DNA of 64,000 nt from Candidatus Nanoarchaeia archaeon (GCA_041653395.1 JBAZFK010000002.1:33215-97214); one strand, 5' to 3'; shown: positions 33,887 to 50,539, numbered from the stretch's first letter. A program made the numbers and translations. Notes: a model not told the origin generated them from the sequence alone.

Positions 33887-33907
33887 TTAGAGTTTTTTTT
33901 GTTTAAA

Positions 33908-33961
33908 TTTCCCCTGGGGCTTTGCTTACAGCAAAGGGCCAGTTCTAAATCCCTGTAAGCC
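33908..33961 (+). other. tRNA-trailer element B (same family as 32345..32400)
   Basis: tttcccc TGGggctttgc ttaca gcaaagggCCAg ttctaaatccctgtaagcc. The outer stem covaries with elements A and C. Confidence 0.6.
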
Positions 33962-34022
33962 TTCAGACTCCAAGATTTTTTAGAAAAATTATTTAAATAA
34001 AAAGATTGAATAGATTACTATA

Positions 34023-34496
34023 ATGGGCAAAAAAAATGATGAATGCAAGGATTGCATTGAAAACATGAAAAAGTTTGAAGAGCTGAAAAAGGATTACGTT
34101 TTGCTTAATAATCAATTAAGGCTGCTTCAGGCAGATTTTGACAACTACAAAAAAAGGGTTATTAAAGAAAAAATTGACTTGTCTGATTTGTCAAAAACAG
34201 AATTAATACTTGATTTATTGCCTGATTTGGAGGCTTTCAAAAAAGCCAGCGAGTTAAGCAAGGAAGAGGGTTTTAAATTATTATATAAAAATTTCATGAA
34301 AGTGCTGGCAAAAGCAGGGCTAAAAGAGATTAAATGCGTTGGCGAAAAATTTGACATTAATTTGCATGAGGCAATGCTTTCTGTTAGGGATGAAACCAAA
34401 GAGGATGGAATAATAATTGATGAAATAGAAAAAGGCTACACTTTCAATGATAAATTAATCAAGCCAAGCAAAGTGATTGTGAATAAGAAACAATAA
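34023..34496 (+). CDS. grpE: nucleotide exchange factor GrpE
   Basis: LRLLQADFDNYKKR, LLPDLEAF, FD...HEAM, C-terminal beta domain. Confidence 0.85.
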   Translation: MGKKNDECKDCIENMKKFEELKKDYVLLNNQLRLLQADFDNYKKRVIKEKIDLSDLSKTELILDLLPDLEAFKKASELSKEEGFKLLYKNFMKVLAKAGLKEIKCVGEKFDINLHEAMLSVRDETKEDGIIIDEIEKGYTFNDKLIKPSKVIVNKKQ

Positions 34497-34528
34497 CTTT
34501 ATTAATATCACTCCTTTATGTTATTTTT

Positions 34529-35008
34529 ATGATTTTTGAAGATTTTAAAAAGAAGCATTCTGATTTAGGGCTTACTGACAAGGATTTCAAGGAGTTTTAT
34601 TGCTTAATTTCTAATTACATACTTTTGAGGATTTTTCCAAATGAGAATGATTTTTATATGGTGACTGGGGAGGATGCTGACTCTTACTTTGACTATTTTG
34701 CCAGAGGGCTGCTTATAATAAAGGACAAATTTCATGTCAAGTTCAACAAGAAATTTTACGAGGCTTTGAACTTCATAATCTCTTATAATCAAACTTTTCA
34801 TTATACAGTTCTTTTTAATGAATTGGATGTTGATATCAAAAAAGAGATTATTAACTATGTGTCTATTAACAAGAAGAAATACAGGATGCCTTATTTGGTC
34901 AGGAATTTCTTGACCGAGCTAATCTATTGCTTTGAGCCTGAAAGGCTTGTAAAAATAGAGATGTACAAAAGCTTTGTAAATTCAAACGGGAAATACTTGT
35001 TTGATTGA
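34529..35008 (+). CDS. hypothetical protein between grpE and dnaK
   Basis: 159-aa ORF. Confidence 0.4.
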   Translation: MIFEDFKKKHSDLGLTDKDFKEFYCLISNYILLRIFPNENDFYMVTGEDADSYFDYFARGLLIIKDKFHVKFNKKFYEALNFIISYNQTFHYTVLFNELDVDIKKEIINYVSINKKKYRMPYLVRNFLTELIYCFEPERLVKIEMYKSFVNSNGKYLFD

Positions 35009-35143
35009 GCTACAACAAGTTTTATAAAAACATTTTATTCTTATATCTGCTACATGGGAAAGTACTCTGAAAGCCTTGATGAGATAATTACTAAGGAAGA
35101 TGAAACTCATAAATAATATATGGGCTTGCCTATAATTTAATCT

Positions 35144-35236
35144 ATGTTGGCATTTTACCACAACATTTATAAATAACTATTGTTGGTATATTACACTAAC
35201 AATAAATGTTGGTGTCAAACACTAACAATAAATGGT
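35144..35236 (+). promoter_or_regulatory. dnaK upstream region: TATA-like box tttataaata and alternating inverted repeats ttgttggt / cactaacaa / tgttggtg / cactaacaa
   Basis: Repeated half-sites, 8-9 nt with 4-6 nt spacers, within 100 nt of the dnaK start. Candidate operator for a heat-shock regulator. Confidence 0.4.
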
Positions 35237-35244
35237 GATAATTA

Positions 35245-37161
35245 ATGGCAAGAACAATAGGTATTGATTTAGGAACAACAAAATGCTGTATGGCATATAT
35301 TGAAGGCGGAAGGCCTCAAGTAATTCCAACCTCAGAAGGAGACAGAATAATGCCTTCAATGGTTGCGTTCACAAAAGAAGGGGAAAGATTAATCGGAACA
35401 CCTGCAAAAAGGCAGGCAGTTGTAAATGCTGAAAACACAGTATTTCACATTAAAAGATTCATGGGAAGAAAATATAATGACCCAGCAATCAAATTCGACT
35501 TAACTCATGCCCCTTATAAAATAGTTAAAGCTCCAAATGGAGATGTAAGGGTTGAGCTTAAAGGAAAGCAATACTCACCACCAGAGATAAGCGCAATGCT
35601 TCTCAGCAAATTAAAAAAAGACGCTGAAGCCTTCTTAGCTGAAGAGGTTGACAGCGCAGTAATAACTGTTCCAGCATATTTTAATGACTCCCAAAGGCAA
35701 GCAACAAAGCAGGCAGGAGAGATAGCAGGGCTTAAAGTTTTAAGAATAATAAATGAACCAACAAGCGCAAGCTTAGCCTACGGATTAGACAAAAAAGGAA
35801 GCAAAAAAATAGCAGTCTATGACTTAGGAGGAGGAACCTTTGATATAAGCATACTAGAATTAAGCGACGGAATCTTCGAAGTCAAATCAACAAACGGAGA
35901 CACCCACTTAGGAGGAGCTGACTGGGACCAAAGAATAATGGACTACATTGTTGAAGAATACAAAAAAAAGCACAATATTGACTTATCAAAAGACAAAACA
36001 GCCATTCAAAGGCTAAAAGAAGCTGCTGAAAAAGCAAAAATAGAGCTTTCAACAACAACTAACACTGAGATTAATATTCCATATATTACAATGGTGGATG
36101 GCAATCCAATTCATGTGAATATGCAGCTATCAAGAGCTAAATTTGAGGATTTGGTGAAAGATTTGCTTGAAAAAACAGTAAGCCCTTGCGAAAAAGCAAT
36201 CAAGGATGCAGGAATAACAAAATCGCAAATTGATGAAATAATATTAGTTGGTGGACCAACAAGAACCCCATCAATCTATGAAAAAGTCAAGAAATTTTTC
36301 GGAAAAGAGCCTAACAAAGGAGTTAACCCTGATGAAGTTGTTGCAGTAGGAGCAGCAATACAAGCAGGAGTGCTAGGAGGAGAAATAAAAGATGTATTAT
36401 TGTTAGATGTTACTCCATTAAGCTTAGGAATTGAAACCTTAGGAGGAATATTTACAAAAATGATTGACAGAAACACCACTGTTCCAATCAAAAAAAGCCA
36501 AGTCTACAGTACTGCAGCTGACAACCAGCCAGCAGTAAGCATACACGTGCTTCAAGGAGAAAGGCCAATGTCAGCAGACAACCATTCTCTTGGAAGATTT
36601 GACTTAGTCGGAATACCTCCAGCCCCAAGAGGAATACCACAAATAGAGGTAACCTTTGACATTGATGCAAATGGAATAATCAATGTCAGCGCGAAAGACT
36701 TAGGAACCGGAAAACAGCAGGCAATAAGCATCAAATCCTCAACAGGACTTAGTGACTCAGAGATTGAAAGAATGAAAGAACAGGCAAAGCAATACGAAGA
36801 GGATGACAGGAAAAAAGCTGAGCAAGTTGAAATATTAAACAAAGCTGAAACAATGACTTACACTGTTGAAAAAACCATAAAAGAAATGGGAGACAAAATG
36901 GACGCTGACACAAAGAAGAATTTGGAAGAAAAATCCGCAGAATTAAAAGCAGTTATTCCAAGCGAGAATCTTGAAGATATAAAGAAAAAAATGGAAGAAC
37001 TAGAAACAATGATTCAGGAATTCACAACAAAACTTTACCAAAAAGCTGCAGCTGAACAGCAAGCCCAACAACCTAATGAAGAAAAGGCAAAGAAACCAAA
37101 AAAAGACAACAAGAACTCAGAAGATGAAGTAGTTGATGGAGACTTTGAGGAAAAGAAATAA
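35245..37161 (+). CDS. dnaK: molecular chaperone DnaK (Hsp70)
   Basis: [10 protein letters not shown]-type start, DLGGGTFD, full Hsp70 NBD and SBD. Confidence 0.97.
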
Positions 37162-37231
37162 AAATTTCTTTTCTTTTTTCTTATTTTTTTTATTAACTTT
37201 TTTAAATAAAGGAAGAGTGAACTGAATTATT

Positions 37232-38365
37232 ATGCCTAAAAATTATTATGAAACATTAGGAGTTAGCAAGGATGCAAGCCAAGAAGAGATAAAAAAAGCT
37301 TACAGAAAAATGGCAATGAAATACCACCCTGATGTCAATAAAGAGAAAGGTGCAGAGGATAAGTTCAAGGAACTAAACGAAGCTTTCAGCGTGATAGGTG
37401 ATGAATCTAAAAGGCAGCAATATGACATGTTCGGCACCACTAGGGACCAGCAAAACCAGGGAGGATTCCAGCAAGGAGCTCAAGGAGGATTTAATGGAGC
37501 AGGATTTGAGGACATGTTCGGAGGCTTTGAAGATATCTTCGGCAGCTTCTTTGGCCAAAGAAGCCATAGGCAAGAAGATGAATCAGGCGAAGATTTAAGG
37601 TACGACTTAGAGATAGAGTTAGAGGAGGTTTACTTTGGGGCAGAAAAAGAGATAAGCTATTATGCTTATGTTGAATGCAGCAAGTGCGACGGCTCAGGAG
37701 CGAGCAATAAATCAAAAATACATGTTTGCAGCACTTGCCACGGCAAAGGATTTATAACCCAAATGGTGAATTTAGGGCCAATAAGAATGCAAAACCAAGG
37801 AGTATGCCCAACCTGCAGAGGAAAAGGTAAAACAATAAAAGATCCTTGCAGCCAATGCGATGGAAAAGGCAGAATAAAAGATAAAGTAAAAATTAAGGTA
37901 AAAATACCCAAAGGGATAAACGAAGGGCAAAGAATAAAGATTAAAGGAAAAGGAAACGCCGCAAAAAACAACAATGCTCCAGGAGACTTATATGTATTTA
38001 TCAGCATTAAGGAGCATTCCAGATTTGAAAGATACAATGAAAACCTTCTAACAACTGTTGATATAAATTTCACGCAAGCAGTGCTTGGAGACAAAGTAAG
38101 CATTAAAACTTTTGACTCAGAAGTCATGCTAAAAATACCTGCAGGCACTCAGCCAAACACTGTATTCAGGTTAAGAGATAAAGGACTTCCAATACTTAAT
38201 CATGATGATTTCGGAGACTTGCTTGTAAAAGTGAACATTGTAGTCCCGACAAAACTAAGCAGCAAAGAAAAGGAGTTGATACAAGAATTGTCAGAGCTTG
38301 AAGGCAAAAAAAACAATACAAGAAAAGGATTCTTTGAACGCTTAAAGGAAGAGTTCAACAAATAA
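37232..38365 (+). CDS. dnaJ: molecular chaperone DnaJ
   Basis: J domain with HPD (KYHPDVN), Gly/Phe-rich region, four CxxCxGxG zinc-finger repeats. Confidence 0.95.
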
Positions 38366-38398
38366 AAATATAAAACCTAATAATTTATTAAATTATTA

Positions 38399-39028
38399 AT
38401 GATTAAGGAATTCTGCATGTACAATAAATCAATAAATGATTTAAAAAAAGCGATTAGTTTAGACAAAAAATTAGTGATTACTGATATCTGGAGCGATTTA
38501 AAAAATTATAAAGAGATAGAATCTTTACTGTTAAGCAATGGATTTAAGCTGAACTATAAAAGGCCTGTTTTTTACAAAAAAGTCAGCGTTCCTGAAAAAT
38601 CAAAGCTGATTTTTAAGACTGAAAAAAAAATAATCAAAGGATTGTTTTTTGAAATGCTTAAAAAAACTGAAAATGCTGACTTTTTAAGCTGGAAAGAAAC
38701 CCCTGCCAAAGGATTTAGGGAGATTTATTCACCTGTCAAGGAATGGAACTTATGCGCTTACAATGAATCAAATAAGCTAATAGGTTTTTTCACTTTAGAA
38801 CATAATAAAATAGGGTATGGAACTTTTTTATTAATTTATATTAAGGATGAATTCAGGGGAAAAAATTATGCAATTGAATTGCTAAAAAAAGCTGAGGAGT
38901 TGTTCATGAAATCAGGAATAAGGGACTGGTATGAATCATCCCATGAATCAAACACTGCAATGATTAAAACATTTATTAGATATGGTTTTATTCACAAACG
39001 AGACTTAATGTTTTTTATAAGAAATTAA
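38399..39028 (+). CDS. GNAT-family N-acetyltransferase-like protein
   Basis: C-terminal GYGTFLL...RGKNYAIELLKKAEE acetyl-CoA-binding-like core. Confidence 0.4.
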   Translation: MIKEFCMYNKSINDLKKAISLDKKLVITDIWSDLKNYKEIESLLLSNGFKLNYKRPVFYKKVSVPEKSKLIFKTEKKIIKGLFFEMLKKTENADFLSWKETPAKGFREIYSPVKEWNLCAYNESNKLIGFFTLEHNKIGYGTFLLIYIKDEFRGKNYAIELLKKAEELFMKSGIRDWYESSHESNTAMIKTFIRYGFIHKRDLMFFIRN

Positions 39029-39528
39029 TCAGTTTCATCAGTCTTGCCTTTTAACAGCTCAAACTTTTTCTTTAATTCATTCATCAAATCATTATGGGAA
39101 GGCTTATCATTAATAGGCAATTCAGTGTTATTTTGGATAATTGGAGCTTTTGGAGGGGGAGGTGGCAAGGGAGGATTATTTGCTGGTTTAACTGGATTAT
39201 ATAAATCAGTCAATAATCCAATAGCCATGCTTCTTACCGAGTCCTTTTCAGCAGCATTTGAAAGACTCTCTTTTGGCAAAACAGTCTCTAAATTATTAAT
39301 TTGAGTTTCAATAAGAGCATATTTATTCTCCAATGAATAAACTCTCTGGTCTAATGAGTTAACTTGAGTGTATAAGTCGCTGAATTTTTCATCAAGGTAT
39401 CCTGCCATGCTTATTATGTTTTTAGCAATCAACTCTATTGTTTCTTCAAGATAAACAAGTTTTATGCGAGTCTCATCATCATTAGAGCTGGAATTCAAAG
39501 CATCAATTAAACCAGAACCTTCTCCCAT
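39025..39528 (-). CDS. hypothetical coiled-coil protein with PPLPPPPPK tract
   Basis: 167-aa ORF. Confidence 0.4.
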   Translation of the reverse strand: MGEGSGLIDALNSSSNDDETRIKLVYLEETIELIAKNIISMAGYLDEKFSDLYTQVNSLDQRVYSLENKYALIETQINNLETVLPKESLSNAAEKDSVRSMAIGLLTDLYNPVKPANNPPLPPPPPKAPIIQNNTELPINDKPSHNDLMNELKKKFELLKGKTDETD

Positions 39529-39718
39529 AATAACTTATAATGTCTCTGAAAACTTATATACTTTTTTCAAACAAAAAATTATATAAATATAACAGGCTAA
39601 TTTAAATCTATAAACATGAAGCCAAGTACTATTTTAATAAGAGAAAGCAAAGCTTTAGTCTTATTAGTCAAGTATTAGGTTTCACTTTTTTAAAAATTTT
39701 TTTGCAGGTGAAACAATA

Positions 39719-40027
39719 ATGAACAGTGATAACTATAAAAAAAATAAGATAAAAAACTTGGAAGAGCAATTAATCAATAAAGGTATAAACGAGTGTTTCA
39801 TAACTTCGGTTTACGAAGTGAACAATAATCCAATACAAACTTTCAGGAATATCTACCTTGAACTTAAAAAAAATGAGCAATCTGTGCAGAGCTATAATTC
39901 ATTAGAGCTTGAGCTTATTAAAAAAGGTGTTAAAGAAAATACAATAAATGTTTTAAAGAGAGCTTTAAAAGACTACATTAAATATATGGGCCTTTTGAAA
40001 AAAATTTATGAAAAATACAAGAGTTAG
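39719..40027 (+). CDS. small hypothetical protein
   Basis: 102-aa ORF. Confidence 0.35.
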   Translation: MNSDNYKKNKIKNLEEQLINKGINECFITSVYEVNNNPIQTFRNIYLELKKNEQSVQSYNSLELELIKKGVKENTINVLKRALKDYIKYMGLLKKIYEKYKS

Positions 40028-40028
40028 A

Positions 40029-40361
40029 TTATTGTTTTTTTGATTCTATTTTTTTTATCTGCTTAACACATTTTTTAAGGCTTTGTGTGTAAACATTGAA
40101 AGTTTCATGGAAATAGTTGAATGAAATCAAAGGATTTGTTTGGCTTAGCACATAAAAGACTGCAGCATTTGCAACAGTATTGTATTGCCTTTGATGAGTA
40201 ATGCTTGCGTAATAATCAGAGATTATGCCTTTAATTTTAGATAATTGAGCCTCGTCTTTCAGGTTAAAATCCTCACAAGTAACCAAAGCAATTTCGTAGG
40301 TTTTTTTAATGTGATTGTTCAATAATTCACCCAAATCCTTTAAAATTGCATCTTTTACCAT
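40029..40361 (-). CDS. small hypothetical protein
   Basis: 110-aa ORF. Confidence 0.35.
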   Translation of the reverse strand: MVKDAILKDLGELLNNHIKKTYEIALVTCEDFNLKDEAQLSKIKGIISDYYASITHQRQYNTVANAAVFYVLSQTNPLISFNYFHETFNVYTQSLKKCVKQIKKIESKKQ

Positions 40362-40425
40362 AATTTAATAGTAAATTATTCTATTTAAAAAACTTATTAA
40401 AAACCCAAATCTCATTAATATTTAT

Positions 40426-40499
40426 GCCCCTGTAGTATAGCTTGGATAGAACAAGAGATTGCGGATCTTTAGACCCGGGTTCAAATCCCGGCAGGGGCA
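40426..40499 (+). tRNA. tRNA-Arg (anticodon GCG)
   Basis: acceptor gcccctg/caggggc, anticodon arm agaga uuGCGga ucuuu (one G-U), T-arm ccggg ttcaaat cccgg. Confidence 0.7.
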
Positions 40500-40550
40500 T
40501 TGGAAGAAAGGTGTAACACCCTAGTCTTTGCTTTATAAATAACTTTGGAG
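40487..40550 (+). repeat. att-like direct repeat copy 1: tRNA-Arg(GCG) 3' end plus 51 nt of trailer
   Basis: 64 nt nearly identical to 43029..43092 (1 mismatch). The first 14 nt are also at 49753..49766. Confidence 0.6.
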
Positions 40551-40600
40551 ATAAATTAATTTAAATTATAAATATATTGTAACTAAAGAAGTATTAATTA

Positions 40601-40681
40601 AATACTAATATCTACTAAAATGTACTAAATTAGTAGATACTTTTATAAATACTAATTTGCATTAAATTAGTAGATAACTAT
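40601..40681 (+). promoter_or_regulatory. Fic promoter/operator: perfect TATA box tttataaata flanked by palindromes (t)cTACTAAaTTAGTAga
   Basis: Palindrome copies at about 40621-40639 and 40661-40679. Related copy downstream of the gene at 42020-42044. Confidence 0.45.
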
Positions 40682-41990
40682 GAATATTCCTGAATTTCCA
40701 AAAGAAAAATTAGTATCTCCCAATGAAATAATGCCTTTTCTAAGTGATAAAAAATTAATGGAAATTATAAAAAAATTTAATGAAGAATACATCCCTTTTG
40801 AAAAACTAAAAAGAAAAGTTTTGCCTAAGGAAGTAAATGTTGAGCAATTGTGGACTATAATGAAAATCTTCAGAAGAAGCAATTATAAAACTGTTAAAAT
40901 AAAAAGTTATGAATTTAATTATTCCTTAAATGATGATTTTCAAAGCAAAATTCATAATTTAGACATGAGCTGCGGAGGAAAATCATTAAACATTAATTTT
41001 CCGCATATAAGCAGCCAAGAGAAAGAAAGATACATTATTAGCTCTTTAATGGAGGAAGCCATTGCATCAAGTCAGCTTGAAGGAGCATCAACAACCAGGA
41101 AAGTGGCAAAAGAAATGCTTAGAAGCAACGCAAAACCAAAATCTTATTCAGATAAAATGATACTCAATAATTATAATACTATGCAAGAAATAGTCAAAAT
41201 GAAGGATGAAAATCTCACAATGAATATGATTTTAAAAATTCATAAATTAATAACTAAAGGCACATTAGAAAGTGAAAAAATGGAAGGTTCTTTTAGGGAT
41301 ACCGATGAAATTGTGGTGGGTGACCCTATAAATATTGAAATAATTTATCATCATCCGCCTAAAAATAGTGAAATAAAAGAGCTTATTGAAGTATTATGTT
41401 ATTTTATAAACAATGATTCAGAATTTATTCATCCGATAATAAAAGCAATAATGCTTCATTTTTTTATAGGTTATATACATCCTTTTTATGACGGAAATGG
41501 AAGAACAGCAAGGGCCTTATTTTATTGGTATATCATAAAGAAAGGATATTGGTTATTTGAATACATGTCTGTTTCAAGGATAATATTAAGGTCAAAAGTT
41601 GATTATGGTATGGCTTATTTATATACTGAACATGATGAAAATGACTTGAATTATTTTATAAAATATAATATTGACTGCATAGAAGAAGCTGTAAAAAATA
41701 CGGAAGAATATATATTAAAAAAACAAAGAGAACAAAGAGAACTTCTTAATATAATACAGCAAACAAAGGGGCTGAATTTAAGGCAAGCTGAAATAATTAA
41801 GGATGCAGCAAAAAATAAAAAACCAATAATAATAAATGAAGTAATAAACACTTTTGGAGTAACTTATCAGACAGCAAGAACTGATCTTTTAGGTTTAGAA
41901 AAAAAAGGATTTTTATCAAAAATTAAGATACAAAAAATGTTCATTTTTAAACTAAATGAAGATAAATTTAAAGAAATAATAAATAAATAG
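40680..41990 (+). CDS. Fic/Doc family protein (AMPylase), class II with N-terminal inhibitory helix motif, C-terminal wHTH
   Basis: Fic motif HPFYDGNGRTARAL. Inhibitory S-x-x-x-E-G (SSQLEG) motif about 120 aa upstream. C-terminal HTH-like segment. Confidence 0.85.
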   Translation: MNIPEFPKEKLVSPNEIMPFLSDKKLMEIIKKFNEEYIPFEKLKRKVLPKEVNVEQLWTIMKIFRRSNYKTVKIKSYEFNYSLNDDFQSKIHNLDMSCGGKSLNINFPHISSQEKERYIISSLMEEAIASSQLEGASTTRKVAKEMLRSNAKPKSYSDKMILNNYNTMQEIVKMKDENLTMNMILKIHKLITKGTLESEKMEGSFRDTDEIVVGDPINIEIIYHHPPKNSEIKELIEVLCYFINNDSEFIHPIIKAIMLHFFIGYIHPFYDGNGRTARALFYWYIIKKGYWLFEYMSVSRIILRSKVDYGMAYLYTEHDENDLNYFIKYNIDCIEEAVKNTEEYILKKQREQRELLNIIQQTKGLNLRQAEIIKDAAKNKKPIIINEVINTFGVTYQTARTDLLGLEKKGFLSKIKIQKMFIFKLNEDKFKEIINK

Positions 41991-42148
41991 TTTATAAGCC
42001 TCATTCAAATACTAATATTTACTAATATCTACTAAATTAGTATTTAAGCATCATTTCTCTTTTCATGTGCCCTAAGGCTTTGAAAAGCAGTTTTTCTTTA
42101 TGGTTTATCTTTGTAGCAATTATGAAAGACTCTCGGGAACTAGCATCT

Positions 42149-42880
42149 TTATTGTGAAGATTTTTTTATAAGAGATTTTAAAAAAGAATATTCTTTTTGT
42201 AATTCACTAATATAATCCTTATTTTCAAAGGGAATCACACTCTCAATTATTGTTGGAATATTAGGGACTAAATGAGAAATCATCTCTTTTTGCTGTGTTA
42301 TATAAATAGGATAATGCTGTTGTTCATCTTTGCCATGTTTTTTATAACCGCTAACATGAATTTCTTTTATTGAATTATTATAATTTTTTAACAAATTATT
42401 AGATAAATTCATATTTTTATCAACAATATAATCATGAGTTAAGTCAAGGACTAGCTTATGATTATTTTCTATTATCTTAATAATTTCATCTAATTTATAA
42501 CCAAAACCATCTTTTCTTCCAATATTTTCAAATAAAAATGGCAGGTCATAATCTTTGAATATGTTCCAATCATCCACAATATCAGAATGAATTATAATAT
42601 TATCAAATTTGAAAATCTTATTGTATTTAACAATAGTATTTAATAATTTTCTTGTTTCAACATTATTTGCATATCTTAATTCTTCAGATGAATGCAATGA
42701 AACATAATTAAACTTTTTAAGCTTATTAATATCTAAAATATTTAATAATTCAATTCTGTAATTAAAAAGTGCGCATAATTCAATGGCATTGCAACCCGTT
42801 GAACTTATTGCATCAACCGCTTCATTGGACAAAGGTTCCAAATGTTTATATAAACTTCCAGTGCTAAAACCCAAAATCAT
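42149..42880 (-). CDS. sugar phosphate isomerase/epimerase (xylose isomerase-like TIM barrel) family protein
   Basis: N-terminus MILGFSTGSL...AIEL matches the family start. Length 243 aa. Confidence 0.45.
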   Translation of the reverse strand: MILGFSTGSLYKHLEPLSNEAVDAISSTGCNAIELCALFNYRIELLNILDINKLKKFNYVSLHSSEELRYANNVETRKLLNTIVKYNKIFKFDNIIIHSDIVDDWNIFKDYDLPFLFENIGRKDGFGYKLDEIIKIIENNHKLVLDLTHDYIVDKNMNLSNNLLKNYNNSIKEIHVSGYKKHGKDEQQHYPIYITQQKEMISHLVPNIPTIIESVIPFENKDYISELQKEYSFLKSLIKKSSQ

Positions 42881-43010
42881 TTAAAATAAGAATAAATCGG
42901 TATTTAAATATTTATTTAATATTGCTTTAGGGAGTAATAATAATTATTTAAATAAGGAGTTATAAATAATAAAATTGTTTTTATTTATATTTAATAAAAA
43001 ATAGGGGCAG

Positions 43011-43092
43011 TTAACCTTTTCTTTGTCGCCCGGCAGGGGCATTGGAAGAAAGGTGTAACGCCCTAGTCTTTGCTTTATAAATAACTTTGGAG
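43011..43092 (+). repeat. att-like direct repeat copy 2, with element-side arm ttaaccttttct
   Basis: cccggcaggggcattggaagaaaggtgtaacGccctagtctttgctttataaataactttggag. Arm motif shared with copy 3. Confidence 0.6.
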
Positions 43093-43470
43093 GTATTTAA
43101 ATTTATGAAAGACGCATGGGAATTGCACCATTACTATGAAGACTTAGAAAGAAAAGTAAAAAGCAGTTATTATTCAAAATATTATTTAACAATGTTTGGA
43201 GTAGTAAACGAATTCATTTTTTTATTAAGTAAATTTGTTGCACTTATTAATAAAGAAAATTTAAAGGGCTGGTTTAGTTCTGTTAAAAAATGCTCATCAA
43301 TGAAAAAAACAATAAAAGAGTTTTTACCTTTAACTGAATTAATATTAAATAGTAGAACTCCTGAAATTATGTTTGATTCATGCGAAAAATTATGGAAAAA
43401 CTGCAATGAATTAGCTAATAATAAACAAGTAGAAATAAAAAATGTAAATAATTTAAAAGAAATAATTTAA
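43087..43470 (+). CDS. hypothetical protein
   Basis: 127-aa ORF starting inside att copy 2. Confidence 0.35.
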   Translation: MEVFKFMKDAWELHHYYEDLERKVKSSYYSKYYLTMFGVVNEFIFLLSKFVALINKENLKGWFSSVKKCSSMKKTIKEFLPLTELILNSRTPEIMFDSCEKLWKNCNELANNKQVEIKNVNNLKEII

Positions 43471-43519
43471 TTAAAACACAATAAATAGTTTTTTAAAAAG
43501 AATTTTTTCAAGTTAATTT

Positions 43520-44800
43520 ATGGGAAAACATAAAACTTTGGATTTTAAGTATTATACTTTAGATAATGGTTTAATAGTTGCTTATAAAAAAACAGGGAAT
43601 AATACTGTTTCAATAGACTTAAATGTTGGAAGCGGTTCATTAACTGAAAAAGATAATGAAAAAGGATTATGCCATTTGTTGGAGCATTGTTTATATAATG
43701 GAGCAACTGCAAAATATGATGTCTCCCAATTAAGTGAAATTAAGTCAAATTTTGGATACACTAATGCTTTTACTGCAGTTAAACCAATATGTTTTTCAGG
43801 AGAAATGCTAAAAGAAGATGCTGAAATTTATTTAGATTTTATATCTCAGGTCGCTTTTAATTCAAGATTTGATGAATCTACTTTAAATCAGGAGAAAGAA
43901 AGAGTTTTAAGGGAGATTTCAGACAGAAAAATAAACATTTCATCTGAGCATATTCAATTATTTGATAAGGCTTTTTTTGGAGATTTGAAGAATGCTTACA
44001 ATGTTTTAGGAGATGAAGAAACTGTAAAAAATGCTTCAGTTATTGATTTAAACAATATATATGGTAGAAATTTTAATGCAAGCAATATGGGTTTGTTTCT
44101 TTATGGAGGATTGCCAGATAATATAGAAAATCTTATTAAAACCTATTTTGGAGGATATCCTAAAGGAAAAAGATTTATGTTTAATACCCAAAAATATACA
44201 CCTAATCCTACTGAATCATTTCTTTATTTTAAAGTGCCTTATTTTTTAAATAAAGAAAATCCTAAATTAAGCAGCGCTGAACTAAATTTAAGAGTTATTG
44301 CCCCAAATTCAGATGAAAAATATTTCTATGAAATGCAAATACTAAATGATATACTTGGAAATTCTTATAATTGCCTTCTTTTTAATGAAATAAGCAAAAA
44401 AAAAGGATTGGCATATAACATAAATTCAAAATTTATTGAGTCCCAATATAATTTTATAAGCATATCTGGCATGGTTTCTGCAATGAAATATGAAGAAGCA
44501 ACCTCTTCAATATTTGATATATTTTCAAAGTTAAGAAGTGAATTAATACCTGAAGATTTATTAATAAAAAATATAAAGAGCAACAAGTTTCAGCTTTCAA
44601 AAATTTACGAATCAAACCAAGGCAATATTAATATGATGAAGGCAAATATTTATGATAATTTTGACATAAATGATGTATTTGATATTATGAAAAATATTAA
44701 TTCAGAAAGCATAAGGGAAGCCGCCAATATTTATTTGCCTGAAAATATTAATGACAAAAAGTATACCTTAATGATAAGAAGCCCATTTGATGAAAAATAA
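43520..44800 (+). CDS. M16-family (pitrilysin/insulinase-like) zinc peptidase-like protein
   Basis: Inverted zinc motif HLLEH near the N-terminus and a downstream Glu region. Two-domain size. Confidence 0.55.
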   Translation: MGKHKTLDFKYYTLDNGLIVAYKKTGNNTVSIDLNVGSGSLTEKDNEKGLCHLLEHCLYNGATAKYDVSQLSEIKSNFGYTNAFTAVKPICFSGEMLKEDAEIYLDFISQVAFNSRFDESTLNQEKERVLREISDRKINISSEHIQLFDKAFFGDLKNAYNVLGDEETVKNASVIDLNNIYGRNFNASNMGLFLYGGLPDNIENLIKTYFGGYPKGKRFMFNTQKYTPNPTESFLYFKVPYFLNKENPKLSSAELNLRVIAPNSDEKYFYEMQILNDILGNSYNCLLFNEISKKKGLAYNINSKFIESQYNFISISGMVSAMKYEEATSSIFDIFSKLRSELIPEDLLIKNIKSNKFQLSKIYESNQGNINMMKANIYDNFDINDVFDIMKNINSESIREAANIYLPENINDKKYTLMIRSPFDEK

Positions 44801-44825
44801 AATTTTTATTTTAAAAAAACTTATT

Positions 44826-45080
44826 TTATAACTTTTTTTCTTGCATTTTTTCTAAAAATATTTGCCCTTCTCTTTCTATATCATAATCATTAATTCCATC
44901 ACTAAATTTTCTATATTCGATAAAATGTATATTTTCTAATTTTTTTAAAATGTTTTTTAATTCAATTTCATTAAATTTTGATTTATTTAATAATTCATTA
45001 AAAGTAATACCTTTGCATGCTTTTTTATTAATAATTTTTAAAATTCTTATTTCTTTAACATTTAACTTTAAAAGTTCCAT
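44826..45080 (-). CDS. small hypothetical protein, possibly wHTH
   Basis: 84-aa ORF. Confidence 0.3.
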   Translation of the reverse strand: MELLKLNVKEIRILKIINKKACKGITFNELLNKSKFNEIELKNILKKLENIHFIEYRKFSDGINDYDIEREGQIFLEKMQEKKL

Positions 45081-45101
45081 AAAATTATGATTACTTCAAT
45101 A

Positions 45102-45380
45102 TTAATATTTCTTTCTTTTCATCTTAAATTCTTCATTTTTTCTTTTTACATATTCTATTATTTCAATAGGCACTCTTTTGTCTATGTATCTGATGATTTC
45201 AGGCCTGACTTTGCCGTTTACTCTTATGCTCATTGCTACATAGTAGTAGACTCCGAGTTTTCCGTTTTTTAGTGTGACTATTTTCTTTTTTATATACATA
45301 AAAAATATTGGGATTAAAGAAATATTTAAGCAACTATTTTTTGCAAATAAAGAATAAGAATGTTTCTTTAAAATTGTCAA
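45102..45380 (-). CDS. small basic hypothetical protein
   Basis: 92-aa ORF overlapping the 3' end of the methyltransferase gene. Uncertain. Confidence 0.25.
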   Translation of the reverse strand: MTILKKHSYSLFAKNSCLNISLIPIFFMYIKKKIVTLKNGKLGVYYYVAMSIRVNGKVRPEIIRYIDKRVPIEIIEYVKRKNEEFKMKRKKY

Positions 45381-46074
45381 AAAATGAATATTTTTTATTG
45401 TGTATTATTTTATTTTTTGGAATTAGGGTTATTTCACTAAATCCTGCTTTTTTTAATTTATTAATGTAATAATTAGGCATTGCAAAATGAGCATATAAAT
45501 CTTTGCCGTAATCATTCCAGTGCAAGTCACCAAAATATTTCTCGTTATTTTTTACTCCAAATATTTTTTTTAAGTAAAATGAAAAAAGCTTTTTAATCCA
45601 AATATTCCAATATTTAAACCCTTTACCTGGATATAAAAAAGTGTGGGTTGTGAAGACAAAATATCCTCCTTTTTTCAATGATTTTGACACATTATTTAAA
45701 GACTTTTGAATATCATCTGGAGAGATATGTTCAATACCATTAAAAGAGAATAAAGCATTATCAAAAAAGTTTTCAGGATAATCTATTTCAGTTAAACTAA
45801 TTGTTTCAAATTCAATATTTATTTTATTCTTTTTAGCATTATTCTTAGCAATTTTAATCATTGAAGGAGTAATATCAATTGCATAAACTTTATTGCCTTT
45901 TTTTGCCAATGGAATTGAGGTTCTTCCTCCACCGCAACCAATATCAAGTATTTTGGACCCTTTTTTAAATAATTTATTAAATAATTTCTCTTCTTCGGGC
46001 CATAAACCTATTTTAGAATAAATATCTTGTGCCTTCTTCGTACTATAACCTTCAGTGATTTCCTTTGAGTCCAT
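45334..46074 (-). CDS. class I SAM-dependent methyltransferase (small-molecule/UbiE-like)
   Basis: ILDIGCGGGRTSIPLAKKG motif I, acidic loop, FSFNGIEH. Confidence 0.7.
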   Translation of the reverse strand: MDSKEITEGYSTKKAQDIYSKIGLWPEEEKLFNKLFKKGSKILDIGCGGGRTSIPLAKKGNKVYAIDITPSMIKIAKNNAKKNKINIEFETISLTEIDYPENFFDNALFSFNGIEHISPDDIQKSLNNVSKSLKKGGYFVFTTHTFLYPGKGFKYWNIWIKKLFSFYLKKIFGVKNNEKYFGDLHWNDYGKDLYAHFAMPNYYINKLKKAGFSEITLIPKNKIIHNKKYSFFDNFKETFLFFICKK

Positions 46075-46110
46075 ATTAGTTATTTAATTAAAAGTAATTT
46101 ATAACTGTTT

Positions 46111-46251
46111 CTTTGTATTCTTATTGTTCTAAATTGCGGATTTACGGATTTGCTAAATTGAAGGCTTGCTGTTTAATTTTGTTCGCTTTTAACAAATTCG
46201 CGACTCGCGAATTTCTTATTTTTGCATAAAATAAACAATCAAGCCTTACTG
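46111..46251. repeat. about 140-bp nested long inverted repeat, MITE-like or large hairpin
   Basis: Arms ttgcggattt / aaatccgcaa and aaggcttg / caagcctt, plus a central perfect palindrome aaattcgcgaCtcgcgaattt (46174-46194). Confidence 0.5.
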
Positions 46252-46362
46252 CTAAGAAATCCGCAAATACGAGAAAATAAAGTGTAAGATTTGTAAAAAA
46301 TTAATTAATAAATATTTTCCATAGCATTCTATACTCCATAGGATGTTGGATAATATTTTTAA

Positions 46363-46539
46363 TTATTCATTCTTTTTTTCAATGCTCATTATTTCTTCAG
46401 GAGCATTTGTGAATACTATTATACTATTGCATTTTGAGCATTGCATCACATAAGTTGCACATATCAATTTAGCATTTGAGGTTAATGCTTTGTTGCTTAT
46501 ATTTATTTCATTTCCGCAATTGTTGCATTTTATTGGCAT
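46363..46539 (-). CDS. small zinc-ribbon protein
   Basis: 58-aa ORF not in the track. CNNC ... CSKC. 7 nt downstream of the 46530..46940 gene. Confidence 0.35.
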   Translation of the reverse strand: MPIKCNNCGNEINISNKALTSNAKLICATYVMQCSKCNSIIVFTNAPEEIMSIEKKNE

Positions 46540-46940
46540 GATTTTTCACCTGAACAATATTGTACTTCTTTTTTTCTGTAAGGAATAGTTATAACTGATT
46601 TTATTACTGTTTCTTTTTTTGTTTCTTCATTAAATCTTGCCATATTAAGAGAATAATCAAGATTTATTAAAAATTTTACAAATTCATTTTTAGTATTTAA
46701 CTTATAAAGTATCATGTTTCCTTTTTTTTCACTAATTAATACTTTTTGTTTTACTAAATCATCACATATTTGTTGTAATGTTGTTCTTGATACTTTAGTT
46801 TCGTTGTTAATTTCTACTTTTGAGTAGCTTCCAAAAAGGTTTTCTATAAAGAAATCAATAACTTTAATTTTTGGAGATTCTCCTAAATATTCTAATAATA
46901 AACTTGCCATAATATCAACCTTAACTAATAAATAAGACAA
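46530..46940 (-). CDS. winged-helix DNA-binding protein (putative transcriptional regulator)
   Basis: N-terminal wHTH-like segment. Start possibly at an internal Met. Confidence 0.4.
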   Translation of the reverse strand: MSYLLVKVDIMASLLLEYLGESPKIKVIDFFIENLFGSYSKVEINNETKVSRTTLQQICDDLVKQKVLISEKKGNMILYKLNTKNEFVKFLINLDYSLNMARFNEETKKETVIKSVITIPYRKKEVQYCSGEKSCQ

Positions 46941-46966
46941 AGGTATTTATAAAAGTATGGTCATAT

Positions 46967-47296
46967 TTGTCCAATTATTGGACAATGTTTTTAAATAATC
47001 TCTTTTTTAAAAAACATATGGAATTATCAAAAGATGACCTTGAAGCGCAGATAGTGTGGAAATTATTTCACAATGGAAAATTTGGAAAAGGCCATTTTAC
47101 TGAAGAAACTATTCTGAAAGGTATTCCCAAGAATATGTGGGGAGATGCAAGAGCAACAATAAAAGACTTAATAAAAAAAGATATTATTCAATACAAAGAC
47201 CATGATCATGGAGGAGCATATTCACTAAACAATCAAAACAAAATTTTATGGAAAGATATAATTGACAAGAAAATGAAAGAATTGGGAATAATTTAA
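46967..47296 (+). CDS. small hypothetical protein
   Basis: 109-aa ORF. Confidence 0.4.
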   Translation: MSNYWTMFLNNLFFKKHMELSKDDLEAQIVWKLFHNGKFGKGHFTEETILKGIPKNMWGDARATIKDLIKKDIIQYKDHDHGGAYSLNNQNKILWKDIIDKKMKELGII

Positions 47297-47366
47297 TACC
47301 TCATTTATATATTTCTTTGTTCCTAATCTTTTCATGCTTTCAGTTAATAATGAGCAATTGACTGAA

Positions 47367-48317
47367 TTATTGGATTTTTTCAAAAGTTTCTACGAATTTA
47401 TCAGGACCTGATTTTATTAATTCTTTTACTTTTTCATTTCCCAATTTTTCGCTTATATCTTTCCACATAACATACCCTACATGATATATTGGGCCGTTTC
47501 CATTGTAAAGAACATTATTAAGATTCTTTGAAAAATTAGAGCTAGGATCATTTAATGCTGATTCAAGGTTTATAAAAAGATTTTTAGCGCTCTCTTTTGA
47601 CATTATGTAGTCGCTTTTTTTAATTTTATCAACTATTTCGAAATTTGTTAATTCATCCTTGATTAATCCAAGAATTATCTCTTGCCATAATTTTTTTTCT
47701 TTAAGAACCTCATAATATGCATCGTAATGCTCTGATTCTATGAATGTTGCCAAGCCTTCGCCAAAAAGCGTTTCTTTAAAATGATTTTCTGATTTAGTGT
47801 ATCCAATCTGATCCAAGTATAAATGGCTTGCTTCATGTGAAACCATGGATTCTAATGATTTTAAAGCCTGCTCTATTCCTTTCTTTTTTAATTCCTGCAT
47901 AGTTATTTCTTTAGGTTTAGGCATTTTCATTATTTGATGGTATAAGTGTGTGAAGTTTATTCCAAAAGAATTATCTCCAATTATTCTTGCAGAAGTTCCT
48001 ATATCTGCTAAGAATACTATTTCAGGAGATTTATAGTTCATATTAGGCATTGCTGATTTAGCAGTGTTTAATCCTTTAATTATTGCTTTTTCATATTTGC
48101 TTTCCAATATGTCTCTAAAAATGTATCCTTGAATCATTCTTTTTTCAGGGTTTAATTCTGATAAATATTTATAAAATTCGCAGTCAACAGTTTTATCTAA
48201 AAAACCGATTCTGCCTTCAGATTTAAGCTTTTTTTCAAGAACTGGCAAAACATTTGAAATATCTGAATGGTAAGCCTCTAAAATGCTGCTTATTTCATCT
48301 TTTATTACAAATTCCAT
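47367..48317 (-). CDS. HExxH-motif protein, putative zinc-dependent peptidase
   Basis: MVSHEASHLYLD plus downstream GEGLATFIESE. Possible third ligand. Confidence 0.45.
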   Translation of the reverse strand: MEFVIKDEISSILEAYHSDISNVLPVLEKKLKSEGRIGFLDKTVDCEFYKYLSELNPEKRMIQGYIFRDILESKYEKAIIKGLNTAKSAMPNMNYKSPEIVFLADIGTSARIIGDNSFGINFTHLYHQIMKMPKPKEITMQELKKKGIEQALKSLESMVSHEASHLYLDQIGYTKSENHFKETLFGEGLATFIESEHYDAYYEVLKEKKLWQEIILGLIKDELTNFEIVDKIKKSDYIMSKESAKNLFINLESALNDPSSNFSKNLNNVLYNGNGPIYHVGYVMWKDISEKLGNEKVKELIKSGPDKFVETFEKIQ

Positions 48318-48567
48318 AATAATTAACAGGAAAAAATCTCTTTAAATATGTTTCTTAATTTTTAAAATAATAAAAAAAAGTTTATAAATAGATTATTTTC
48401 ATTTAGTTTATTATGGATAATGATATTGTTTCTAAAAAAATAAAGAATGCTCTTTTAAAGCTAGGGATTAATGAAGAGGATAAGATTGAAAATATATTAA
48501 AAGATTATAATTCTTGCGCAAATAAAAAATTTTTTAGGGATATTCAAAGGATTCTTATATTGGCGCT

Positions 48568-48981
48568 TTGATTTATAATTATTATAAACCTTTAATTAAT
48601 ATGGAATCAGTGTCAAGTGCAGTTAATTGTAGCGTTTTTTATTTAAAAAATGCATATTCCAGGTATTTAAGGGAAGAATATGTAATTCGAAAACCTAGAA
48701 ATAATTCTCTGGATGAAGTAATAAATTTTTACTCAAAAGATTTTTCAATCAATAAAGAATCTTTTATAAAAAAGCTTGAAAGTTTCACTAAGCCAAAATA
48801 TGAATTGGCAGTAAAAAGCATAAATAATGGCAATAAAGGAGCTATAGCTGCCTCCATTTATTTATTCACTGAAGACAAAATTCATGATAACCAAACAAAA
48901 ATATCCAGGCTTGTAGGAGTCACGGAAGTAACATTAAAAAATTGGGTGAAAAAAATAAAACCTAAATATTATAAAAGATAA
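48568..48981 (+). CDS. HTH DNA-binding protein
   Basis: C-terminal ISRLVGVTEVTLKNWVKK helix-turn-helix. Start may be an internal Met. Confidence 0.4.
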   Translation: MIYNYYKPLINMESVSSAVNCSVFYLKNAYSRYLREEYVIRKPRNNSLDEVINFYSKDFSINKESFIKKLESFTKPKYELAVKSINNGNKGAIAASIYLFTEDKIHDNQTKISRLVGVTEVTLKNWVKKIKPKYYKR

Positions 48982-49148
48982 TTCTAATAAAAAAAATACT
49001 AGATTATTACCTTATGAATGAAAAATTAAAGCAATTTTTCCAACCCTGGGAACTAAAACTAATAGAGATAATAGAAGAAGCTAAGAAAGAGAAGACAAAA
49101 AAGATAAAATTGAAATTAAAAATACATTATTGGAATAAATTAAATTAA

Positions 49149-49586
49149 TTATTTTTTAGCTAAGCTTTCACTTAAAGTTTCGTTTGGAAAGTATATTAAT
49201 ACTTTTTCGGTTTTGAATTCAATCATTTCATATTCTTTTCTAATTATTACTTTTAAATTATTATATTTTTTTTTGAAAAATTCATAATTATTCACTTTAA
49301 AATCTGGTGCACCCCTTTGTGTGCGTGTTTCATCATAAATTCTTATTTTTATTAAATTTAAAGGTCCATAAATAGTTTTAATTGGAATATTTAACCTAAA
49401 TATTTCTCCAGTTTTAACAGAGTCTATTAATTTACTAACTTTTTTTATTTCTTCTAGTAGTTTTTTTCTTTCAACTTCATCTTTTGGAAAAATATCAACA
49501 AAATCAATTAATAATTTTTCGGATATTACATTTTTAATTGCATTATTTGTTTCTTTAACAATTTCATTAACAATCTCATTTATCAT
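49149..49586 (-). CDS. hypothetical protein
   Basis: 145-aa ORF. Confidence 0.4.
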   Translation of the reverse strand: MINEIVNEIVKETNNAIKNVISEKLLIDFVDIFPKDEVERKKLLEEIKKVSKLIDSVKTGEIFRLNIPIKTIYGPLNLIKIRIYDETRTQRGAPDFKVNNYEFFKKKYNNLKVIIRKEYEMIEFKTEKVLIYFPNETLSESLAKK

Positions 49587-49734
49587 TCTTTAAACTATTA
49601 ATAGTTACTATAAAATTTTTTCTTTTTAACAAAAAATAAGTATTCTATTAATAGAAAATTCGGGAAAAGTTTATATAAAATCTCTGCCTCACTTAATCTT
49701 TGTAAATAAAAAAACGAGCAAAAATTAAGGGTGA

Positions 49735-49766
49735 TTGACCTTTTCTCAGACTCCCGGCAGGGGCAT
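49735..49766 (+). repeat. att-like repeat copy 3: element-side arm plus 14-nt tRNA-Arg(GCG) 3' core
   Basis: ttgaccttttctcagactcccggcaggggcat vs copy 2 ttaaccttttctttgtcgcccggcaggggcat. Confidence 0.55.
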
Positions 49767-49801
49767 AGAATCTTTATTAAAATATAAGAGTAACTTGAAT
49801 A

Positions 49802-49972
49802 ATGATGAATTTGCTTAAGAGTTTGATACTTGAAGAGGAGCGTAAAGGAAAATGCATTGTTTGCTACAGGGTTTTGGAGAATGAAGACTTATTCTGCATT
49901 GATAATGATAAGAAAGCCTGTTTTTGCTGCAATAATTGCAGGATTGAATGGCTAATGAAAAATAATAAATAA
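49802..49972 (+). CDS. small Cys-rich (TRASH/zinc-ribbon-like) protein
   Basis: 56-aa ORF not in the track. CIVC...C...CFCCNNC. Confidence 0.3.
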   Translation: MMNLLKSLILEEERKGKCIVCYRVLENEDLFCIDNDKKACFCCNNCRIEWLMKNNK

Positions 49973-50020
49973 TGCTGATTTAAGCAGATTTTTAAATAAA
50001 AAATCTTCAATATATTAATT

Positions 50021-50539
50021 ATGAATTTAAGCAATTATTGCGCTGAATTATCCAGATGGCTGCCTACAAAATATCATCCTGAAGTATATTTTGTTGGAGG
50101 AGTATTATTAAACAGGCAAATAACTGATGTTGATATCTTTGTTTATGGAAAACATGCTTCAGCTATAGAGATGAAGCTTTATGGTAAGTTTTTTTCAGAC
50201 AATAAGGAGCTTGAAGTCTTAACTTCTTTGTCAACAGATGATTTTGAAGACTCAAAGGGTAATAATTTAACTGAGTATATCCTTACTCAAGGACTAACCA
50301 AAAATATTTCAAGCTTCGGATTTAATAGATTAACTGTTGAGGGCTTGTTTTTGTCAAAGCTTGCAGCTTTTGAGCAGAGAGGGGATGAAACCTTAAAGGA
50401 TTTGGCTGATATTGAGTTTCTTCTTAAAAGATTTGAGAATAAAATTCCAGAAACTCTTATAACTATTATGAATGATTTTGATTTACATGAAACTTACTTA
50501 AGGATTGAAGAGTATGGCCAAAGATTCGACTATTATTAA
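50021..50539 (+). CDS. hypothetical protein
   Basis: 172-aa ORF. Confidence 0.4.
   Translation: MNLSNYCAELSRWLPTKYHPEVYFVGGVLLNRQITDVDIFVYGKHASAIEMKLYGKFFSDNKELEVLTSLSTDDFEDSKGNNLTEYILTQGLTKNISSFGFNRLTVEGLFLSKLAAFEQRGDETLKDLADIEFLLKRFENKIPETLITIMNDFDLHETYLRIEEYGQRFDYY

Follow-up and report, generated by a model that had tools for sequence, protein, structure and literature searches.

Two stacked islands at tRNA-Arg(GCG) of a Candidatus Nanoarchaeia archaeon as probable integrase-deleted remnants of one integrative family

The DNA investigated, 64,000 nt of one strand from Candidatus Nanoarchaeia archaeon (GCA_041653395.1, JBAZFK010000002.1:33215-97214; this whole stretch is called the window), contains an intact tRNA-Arg(GCG) gene followed by two genomic islands. 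The tRNA was placed at 40425-40500 by ARAGORN and was recognised by Rfam (RF00005, 58.8 bits). A 14-nt core, CCCGGCAGGGGCAT, consisting of the final 13 nt of the tRNA gene and a T, was found exactly at positions 40487, 43029 and 49753 and at no other site in the 64 kb, even with up to two mismatches. Shuffled sequences gave an expectation of 0.04 core matches by chance, and three copies were reached in 0 of 100 shuffles. The triple repeat described in a first-pass annotation of this DNA was thereby confirmed, and the refutation considered there, that the repeat might be a widespread intergenic motif, did not apply, the core being tied to tRNA-Arg(GCG). The insert enclosed by the outer cores extends from 40501 to 49766 (9,266 nt) and has a GC content of ~0.25 (0.23-0.29 across 40-50 kb), compared with ~0.32 outside (~0.30-0.38 in the flanks). 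Island 1, between core copies 1 and 2, encodes a Fic-domain protein and a TIM-barrel protein; island 2, between copies 2 and 3, encodes among others two putative peptidases and a methyltransferase (Table 1). The insert most probably represents two stacked elements of one integrative family, both of which have lost their integrase gene (int) by deletion and resemble the remnants known as cis-mobilisable elements (CIMEs).

The repeats extend beyond the core in different directions. Copies 1 and 2 have 64 nt in common with a single A/G difference, as the first-pass annotation had stated, and 77 nt could be aligned at 94% identity. Upstream of the core, copies 2 and 3 have TTRACCTTTTCT-N6 in common, inside a stretch of 47 nt with 79% identity, and the extra upstream arm reported for both was thus seen again. 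The A/G difference had also been thought to preserve a small hairpin by means of a G-U pair. A GGTG-TAA-CRCC hairpin does exist, but shuffled sequence folded at least as well (z = +0.2 to +1.4), and in the related contigs L013 and L018 the variant GGTCAAACGCC breaks the fourth pair, with loss of the 4-bp stem. G-U compensation as a sign of constraint was therefore rejected. Within the family, G is the consensus at this position, and only copy 1 has A. Three tRNA-Arg genes (TCT, TCG and GCG) are located inside 10.4 kb (30095-40499), and the 3′ end is repeated for GCG only.

Exact-protein look-ups with the flanking genes led to short metagenome contigs of a related strain, L007 (ENA ERZ27247358) and L008 (JGI 3300014205). 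Both contain an empty site: homologues of the two left-flank genes and then the tRNA lead straight into AGAATCTTTATTAAAATATAAG..., i.e. the window sequence from 49767 onward. In Blast alignments, L007 3-640 matched window 39866-40500 and L007 626-841 matched window 49752-49967; the 15-nt sequence TCCCGGCAGGGGCAT, found at both insert ends in the window, is present as a single copy in L007. The comparison of empty and occupied sites in relatives, which had been proposed as a check, therefore identifies 40501-49766 as an insertion with exact att boundaries. The native trailer of the tRNA is AGAATCTTTATT..., as at the empty site. Because the empty site joins the tRNA core to 49767 onward, the 51 nt that had been labelled tRNA trailer belong to the element instead, where they form an arm containing the integrase promoter and the ribosome-binding site. 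Occupied-site contigs identical to the window were obtained from three samples (L002-L006, L010), one of which, JGI 3300014205, also has the empty allele. The window is AT-rich; all related genome contigs retrieved were labelled Candidatus Nanoarchaeia, Woesearchaeota or Nanoarchaeota.

Two kinds of contig were considered as products of excision and rejected. Contig L003 (2,538 nt, spanning 40521-43058) has as its ends the first and last unique 31-mers beside the repeats and was attributed to an assembly break, not to a circle of island 1. The ends of contigs L001 and L002 inside the tRNA are explained by co-occurring strains with a common tRNA. Just beyond the island, a 172-aa open reading frame (ORF; 49973-50539) with a weak match to AbiEii-type nucleotidyltransferases is absent from the empty-site strain (compared with L007 841-873 and L008), save for its last ~30 nt. 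The identity between the window and L007 rises from 88-90% to 99.4% exactly at 50518, a step that indicates a recombination breakpoint between lineages.

Species-representative genomes were scanned for tRNA-Arg(GCG). The tRNA was followed by the same right arm in contigs L011 and L013 from metagenome-assembled genomes (MAGs), and by a diverged version of the arm in L017. In L013, the arm leads into an ORF starting MKDAWTLHHYYEDLESKVKS..., which is a tyrosine recombinase until the end of the available piece. A protein search with this integrase gave 459 matches at E <= 1e-3, nearly all of them 385-400-aa PF00589 proteins of DPANN-type archaea. One of these, P0002 from L018, is 98% identical to the L013 integrase, is complete with 385 aa and is encoded directly after tRNA-Arg(GCG) and the arm. 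The ORF after the arm starts MKDAWTLHHYYEDLE... in both L013 and L018, and the intact int of the relatives begins 63 nt past the core. PF00589 was a precomputed annotation of P0002. The motifs GCRIGE, GKTGVRQV, NPHSFRHARATH (HSFRH), FGW and VYVHL were read by eye, and by this reading P0002 seems to have the R, K, HxxR, W and Y motifs usual for such enzymes; a CxxC...CxxC ribbon is visible at the C terminus. By its PF00589 domain and these residues, P0002 falls within the tyrosine recombinase superfamily, and the fold is supported by its nearest solved structures, both archaeal XerA (4a8e, 3e-16; 5hxy, 4e-13).

A remnant of the same gene was detected in island 2, where the first 20 codons directly follow the arm and are fused to 101 unrelated codons. 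The earlier statement that no integrase is present at the locus was correct in that there is no intact gene and no recombinase domain, the latter from a Pfam search of the island ORFs of the kind that had been recommended, but it overlooked this 5′ remnant of a tyrosine recombinase. Among the explanations offered at that time for the missing recombinase, decay is directly supported by the 20 codons. In tblastn searches with 120 family members, no other meaningful integrase similarity was found in the 64-kb window. A match at 12570-13106 (24% identity, E = 0.002) was treated as spurious, the ORF resembling a diphthamide-synthesis protein by eye. Outside the islands, the absence of other recombinase classes was judged from the family tblastn and visual inspection only. 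The insert thus agrees with tRNA-targeted tyrosine-recombinase islands in its regenerated tRNA, flanking cores, empty site and deviant GC; an integrase of its own adjoining the att site is missing from the window islands and present in L013 and L018.

The ends of both islands could be aligned with those of relatives. For island 2, an attP of ~189 nt (113 + 14 + 62) was reconstructed. The sequence of its right (P′) arm precedes the intact int in L013 and L018 and was found also in L011 and L021; identity among the right arms of the window, L011, L013 and L018 was 88-95%. The left (P) arm was 83-85% identical over 138-161 nt between the window, L011 and L009, and the left-arm stub of island 1 matched the left arms of L009 and L011 at ~85% (E ~4e-8 to 7e-8). 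A motif, TCTTTG...TAAATAA, is present in both arms, and the arms, or this motif within them, may be binding sites of the integrase. Rfam found no structured RNA in the arms, its matches being to the tRNA only, and folding was not consistently better than that of shuffled sequences: three left arms had z values of -0.5, -2.4 and -0.1, and the values of the right arms were positive. When the ends of each island were joined in silico, no ORF longer than 62 aa spanned the reconstituted attP of either.

Elements without int were found at the same target in L011 and L021. The MAG STB_47 (L011) carries a mini-island of 992 nt in which the tRNA core is followed by a right arm identical to that of window copy 2, 22 int codons and a stop, an NYN-like gene, a left arm of ~130 nt and a second core, beyond which the host flank is unrelated. 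L009 has the same left arm and core beside another host flank and a different adjacent gene. In L021 (651 nt, ENA ERZ27247358), a different tRNA 5′ flank and a variant of the tRNA are followed by a 98% match to window 43029-43474, comprising the core, the right arm and the whole fusion ORF; different cargo comes afterwards, and island 1 is missing. The left end of island 2 can therefore adjoin the tRNA directly without island 1, and the deletion of int must predate the split of the window and L021 copies. L021 contains the sole homologue of the fusion ORF that was found (98% nucleotide identity). Compared with L021 201-566, there are ~9 nt differences over the 446-nt match containing the ORF, and 7 of the 121 aa differ, mostly in the C-terminal part, a pattern that suggests relaxed constraint or a recombinant 3′ end.

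Two comparisons point to movement of the int-bearing form. Over 640 nt, the left flanks of L007 (empty) and L013 (occupied, with int) are 99.84% identical, and their agreement breaks off precisely where the core ends; the two represent a presence/absence polymorphism of a single lineage. Arm and int of L018 agree with those of L013 at 91.8%, compared with only 78% in the DnaK-DnaJ host flank, and the element is therefore younger than the divergence of the hosts.

Under the proposed mechanism, the family integrase would recombine an attP of ~190 bp with the tRNA 3′ end. This attP would be made up of a 14-15-nt core with the sequence of the tRNA 3′ end, a P arm of ~113 nt on one side of it and, on the other, ~60 nt of P′ arm doubling as int promoter and ribosome-binding site; strand exchange presumably takes place inside the core. 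Integration would regenerate the tRNA and duplicate the core, two such events giving three cores. An int-bearing element would be expected to end in a second CCCGGCAGGGGCA after an arm of ~113 nt, and it probably has the same 113-nt P arm as island 2, judging by L011, in which both arms occur together with int codons. Both elements would later have lost int, island 2 keeping the promoter, the ribosome-binding site, 20 codons fused to unrelated sequence and the full P arm, and island 1 keeping 50 nt of P′ and ~33 nt of P only; the islands would now serve to carry accessory genes. The former possession of int is seen directly in island 2, from the stub and the full gene in homologous elements; the arms suggest it for island 1. 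In the simplest history, island 2 or its ancestor would have arrived first and lost int, and island 1 would have followed at the tRNA-proximal att site. The successive insertion of two related elements, as envisaged in the first-pass annotation, is supported by the empty site, by the int-bearing relatives and by L021 with its lack of island 1. A split integrase of the SSV type was rejected, as no ORF crosses either attP and the int of L018 is whole after integration; the 20-codon 5′ stub and the lack of an ORF across attP therefore favour deletion over SSV-type partition as the route of int loss. The question of the missing recombinase is thus largely settled in favour of the decay of a canonical tyrosine-integrase element.

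Table 1. Features of the tRNA-Arg(GCG) locus and the two islands; positions are those of the window.
Feature	Position	Strand	Evidence or remarks
tRNA-Arg(GCG), intact; integration target, attB = its 3′ end	40426..40499	+	ARAGORN; Rfam
Core copy 1, attL of island 1	40487..40500	+	Exact match; empty-site contig L007 collinear to 40500
Right (P′) arm of island 1, 50 nt	40501..40550	+	Same as island 2 arm except one A/G; homology ends at GGAG ribosome-binding site
Fic-domain protein with C-terminal DeoR-like helix-turn-helix (HTH), SoFic-like, island 1	40680..41990	+	Pfam Fic 2e-20, HTH_DeoR 1e-4; PADLOC SoFic 3e-50
TIM-barrel (xylose isomerase-like) protein, island 1	42149..42880	-	Pfam AP_endonuc_2 2e-4, under curated cut-off; PADLOC PDC-M70B 6e-27
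Shortened left (P) arm of island 1, ~33 nt of ~115-nt family arm	42996..43028	+	Blast to L009 and L011 left arms; alignment
Core copy 2, island 1/island 2 junction, attP-like (island 1 P arm, core, island 2 P′ arm)	43029..43042	+	
Right (P′) arm of island 2: integrase promoter region (TTTATAAATA) and ribosome-binding site (GGAGGT)	43043..43104	+	
Tyrosine integrase gene remnant, first 20 codons (MKDAWELHHYYEDLERKVKS)	43105..43164	+	tblastn with P0002 residues 1-20, 85% identity, E = 2.5e-6
121-aa fusion ORF, 20 int codons and 101 unrelated codons	43105..43470	+	Weak KNTase_C/HEPN-like flag in source data only
M16 (insulinase-type) peptidase, island 2	43520..44800	+	Pfam Peptidase_M16 and M16_C, 1e-20 each
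Small winged-helix-like regulator, 84 aa, island 2	44826..45080	-	Weak TFIIE_alpha; PHROG transcriptional regulator 9e-4
Class I S-adenosylmethionine (SAM)-dependent methyltransferase, island 2	45334..46074	-	Pfam Methyltransf_25, 1e-22
Zn-ribbon protein (58 aa) and winged HTH protein (136 aa), overlapping genes, island 2	46363..46940	-	Weak Pfam/PHROG
DUF5700 putative Zn-dependent peptidase (HExxH), island 2	47367..48317	-	Pfam DUF5700, 2e-6
Hypothetical genes, island 2: 52 aa and 137 aa (+), 145 aa (-)	48413..49586	both	No family match, no recombinase signature
Left (P) arm of island 2, ~113 nt (ATTAATAGAAAATTC...TTGACCTTTTCT)	49640..49752	+	Kept in independent elements with differing neighbour cargo
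Core copy 3, attR; native chromosome restarts at 49767	49753..49766	+	Exact match; L007/L008

Several observations weigh against the reading of two stacked, integrase-deleted elements. Neither a circular junction nor any other product of excision was seen among the contigs recovered. They also lacked an int-bearing element complete at both ends, L013 stopping 842 nt past the tRNA and L018 450 nt past int. Most of the cargo resembles ordinary chromosomal genes, and replication, conjugation or virion genes are lacking. Islands 1 and 2 agree at 63 of 64 positions in their right arms, while the left arms are ~79% alike. This asymmetry is not obviously explained by two independent arrivals, and gene conversion or a homologous insertion of island 1 could produce it; the short arms of island 1 are a second point that fits less well.

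A different explanation, which we regard as possible though doubtful, is that the int-less islands are working cassettes of the CIME or mini-island type that are mobilised in trans, arms and core sufficing for their excision, transfer and re-integration by a cognate integrase of another element, and that the array and its variable cargo derive from ongoing traffic. At least four int-less cases (islands 1 and 2, L011 and L021) have kept conserved arms, and the conservation of the left arm (83-85%) persists despite unrelated neighbour genes and host flanks. Arm and fusion ORF are 98% identical between the window and L021, compared with ~92% for the tRNA body and a 5′ flank that cannot be aligned. 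The endpoints of the int deletions, ~43165 in the window and the equivalent of ~43156 in L011, are within ~10 nt of each other, as if retention up to this point were required, and the int-bearing element is polymorphic in a sister lineage from the same samples. On the other hand, neither a circle nor a same-strain pair of empty and occupied sites for an int-less element was seen among the contigs recovered, the 64-kb window contains no cognate integrase, and island 1 retains ~33 nt of the P arm only. The 7 aa changes in the fusion ORF, against ~9 nt changes over the 446-nt match, are what relaxed constraint would produce, the conservation of the right arm may reflect nothing more than a promoter, and L021, with 651 nt, is too short for its host to be placed. 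That short att arms (~113 nt and ~50-60 nt) around the tRNA-Arg(GCG) core define a class of int-less cassettes of 1 to 7 kb in Nanoarchaeia, moved in trans by a Xer-like integrase that circulates on a few autonomous elements, seems rather unlikely. If true, an exchange like that of miniature inverted-repeat transposable elements (MITEs) or CIMEs would shuffle chromosomal genes (M16, TIM-barrel) and defence genes (SoFic) between DPANN lineages with very small genomes.

It is improbable that islands 1 and 2 came jointly, as one composite with an internal att copy, in a single integration. The transfer of pre-formed tandems is known in bacteria (PMC5704250), and both islands were present in every window-like contig recovered (L003-L006, L010), but L021 has the left end of island 2 at its tRNA (98%) without island 1, and the left arms of the two islands differ in length and divergence. 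Quite improbable, too, is a homologous rather than site-specific entry of island 1, in which the RadA pathway of the host would have recombined a circular or linear DNA with the resident attL of island 2 through their common 64 nt of core and P′ arm. Such an event would account for the near-perfect identity of copies 1 and 2 over 64 nt compared with ~79% in the left arms, the mosaic identity with relatives (88-90% to 99.4% at 50518) shows that homologous exchange occurs at the locus, and homologous recombination between tandem mobile genetic elements (MGEs) has been discussed for archaea (PMC8371274). The P-arm fragment at 42996-43028, however, abuts the core, as site-specific integration predicts and homologous recombination does not require; both routes give the same end structure and cannot be separated by sequence. 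Several island ORFs have no family match, but a recombinase of unrecognised type among the hypothetical proteins (e.g. the 137-aa or 145-aa ORF near attR), one of the options left by the first-pass annotation, is unnecessary and highly improbable, given the canonical tyrosine integrase at the expected position in the family (L013, L018), its 5′ remnant in island 2, the different ORFs beside the left arm in the window, L009 and L011, and the NYN-like gene as the sole gene of the 1-kb L011 island.

Stacked elements of the preferred kind, in which int has been deleted, have well-described counterparts. CIMEs have kept their att sites and lost their integration genes, and an accretion model has been formulated for them (PMC5704250). 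In the tandem accretion of CIMEs with integrative and conjugative or mobilisable elements (ICEs/IMEs), as in those related to ICESt1/ICESt3 of Streptococcus thermophilus (Pavlovic 2004 and Bellanger 2011, via PMC5704250), elements with attL and attR and without int are likewise stacked at the 3′ end of one target, and integration, decay and a second integration at the resident att site likewise leave an internal attP-like hybrid. Both islands of the window have cores and arms at both ends (~33 nt of P arm in island 1), and the loss of int is documented for island 2 by the 5′ stub and the full gene in homologous elements and suggested for island 1 by its arms. They differ in their archaeal DPANN host, in the lack of conjugation or mobilisation genes, and in that both tandem members are without int, with no cis-mobilising partner at the locus. 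Tandem integration and loss of int after integration have also been documented for archaeal MGEs (PMC8371274). The mechanism is thus a known one and the route an expected one, and the present case adds a member to the known class of integrase-deleted tRNA islands.

Among archaeal systems, class II MGEs with non-partitioning integrases of the pNOB8 type (PMC8371274) similarly target tRNA 3′ ends and duplicate the core, and their int stays whole beside the att site after integration, as in the intact relatives described here. The integrases of the present family, in contrast, are 385-400 aa long, have a C-terminal Zn ribbon and are nearest to XerA among solved structures; the likeness to the non-partitioning class is one of behaviour. 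Elements with ‘suicidal’ class I integrases of the SSV type (PMC7253208) also use archaeal tRNA targets and are left without a functional integrase once integrated, but their attP lies inside int, which is split to both element ends, whereas no ORF spans attP here and int is not partitioned. Integron cassettes likewise consist of cargo units separated by a repeated recombination site beside a fixed chromosomal point. Unlike in integrons, no IntI-type gene or attC-type imperfect palindromes were found at the locus; what is repeated here is the 3′ end of a tRNA, its arms are asymmetric, and each unit contains several genes. XerA is a housekeeping enzyme that acts at dif. The family integrase shares the tyrosine recombinase fold with the XerA resolvases 4a8e and 5hxy, its best structure matches, but it is polymorphic between strains, lies beside tRNA genes, is followed by variable cargo and is ~90 aa longer.

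The mobile elements of DPANN archaea are barely characterised, and a 2021 review of archaeal tyrosine recombinases contains no mention of DPANN, Woesearchaeota or Nanoarchaeota (PMC8371274). The locus provides a boundary-resolved case of site-specific gene gain in DPANN of the Nanoarchaeia/Woesearchaeota type, with core, arms, empty site, a relative with int and decayed derivatives. It shows that tRNA hot spots supply these reduced genomes with accessory and defence-type genes through the accretion-and-decay route familiar from bacteria and other archaea. The integrase family, large as it is (459 matches, with tRNA-Arg and tRNA-Ser specificities), could help to delimit islands in DPANN MAGs.

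Paralogous integrases, 72-73% identical to P0002, likewise directly follow tRNA-Ser(AGA) and tRNA-Ser(TGA) genes. A family copy truncated to 237 aa is located directly after tRNA-Ser(TGA) in L022 9856-20714, on a 90-kb contig (JGI 3300035208, Ga0376279_0000106) from a sample that also contains window-identical contigs; the cargo following it includes a reverse transcriptase (RVT_1), a radical SAM/SPASM protein, a glycosyltransferase and methyltransferases. In L019 10001-18999, the cargo after the tRNA-Ser(AGA)-linked integrase P0003 (73% identity) is restriction-modification-like, with genes for an N6/N4 DNA methyltransferase and a ResIII helicase. A conserved 48-aa membrane ORF overlaps the int stop codon in L019, as in L018. 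No second att copy was found for either tRNA-Ser-linked element within 9-10.7 kb (10.7 kb in L022).

The cargo listed in the first-pass annotation (Fic, TIM-barrel, M16, methyltransferase, HExxH, HTH and Cys-rich proteins) agreed with the Pfam results, the TIM-barrel match being weak; the island protein record carries the locus tag WC376_01440. Homologues of the TIM-barrel protein were at most 45% identical and are located among housekeeping genes in other archaea, and no intact ancestor or related island for island 1 was found through them. Exact-pattern scans of IMG/VR for a viral origin (core with right arm, left arm with core, left-arm block, right-arm block) gave zero matches. When the 145-aa ORF, the DUF5700 protein and the integrase were used as protein queries for the same purpose, one weak Zn-ribbon match was obtained and no relative otherwise, and PHROGs gave marginal regulator matches only.

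A homologue of the M16 peptidase (63% amino acid and 72% nucleotide identity) is encoded at L013 6213-7535, between a grpE-like gene and dnaK, and the counterpart of this spot in the window (35008-35245) is a spacer of 237 nt only. A gene of this kind thus belongs to the chromosome proper in one lineage and to an island in another. The Fic gene is flanked by three copies of a ~30-nt repeat with the palindrome TACTAAATTAGTA, two upstream and one downstream (40608-40676, 42015-42046), which could act as operators for the HTH at the C terminus of the Fic protein itself or delimit a smaller cassette. At tRNA-Pro(TGG) (57527-57665, minus strand), the last 14 nt (CCGGGCAGACTCAA) are repeated 63 nt downstream, and the repeats enclose 49 nt with a GC-rich hairpin (GGGCTTTGC-GAA-GCAAAGGGC). 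This arrangement looks like a second att-type duplication, from which nearly all of the intervening DNA may have been deleted.

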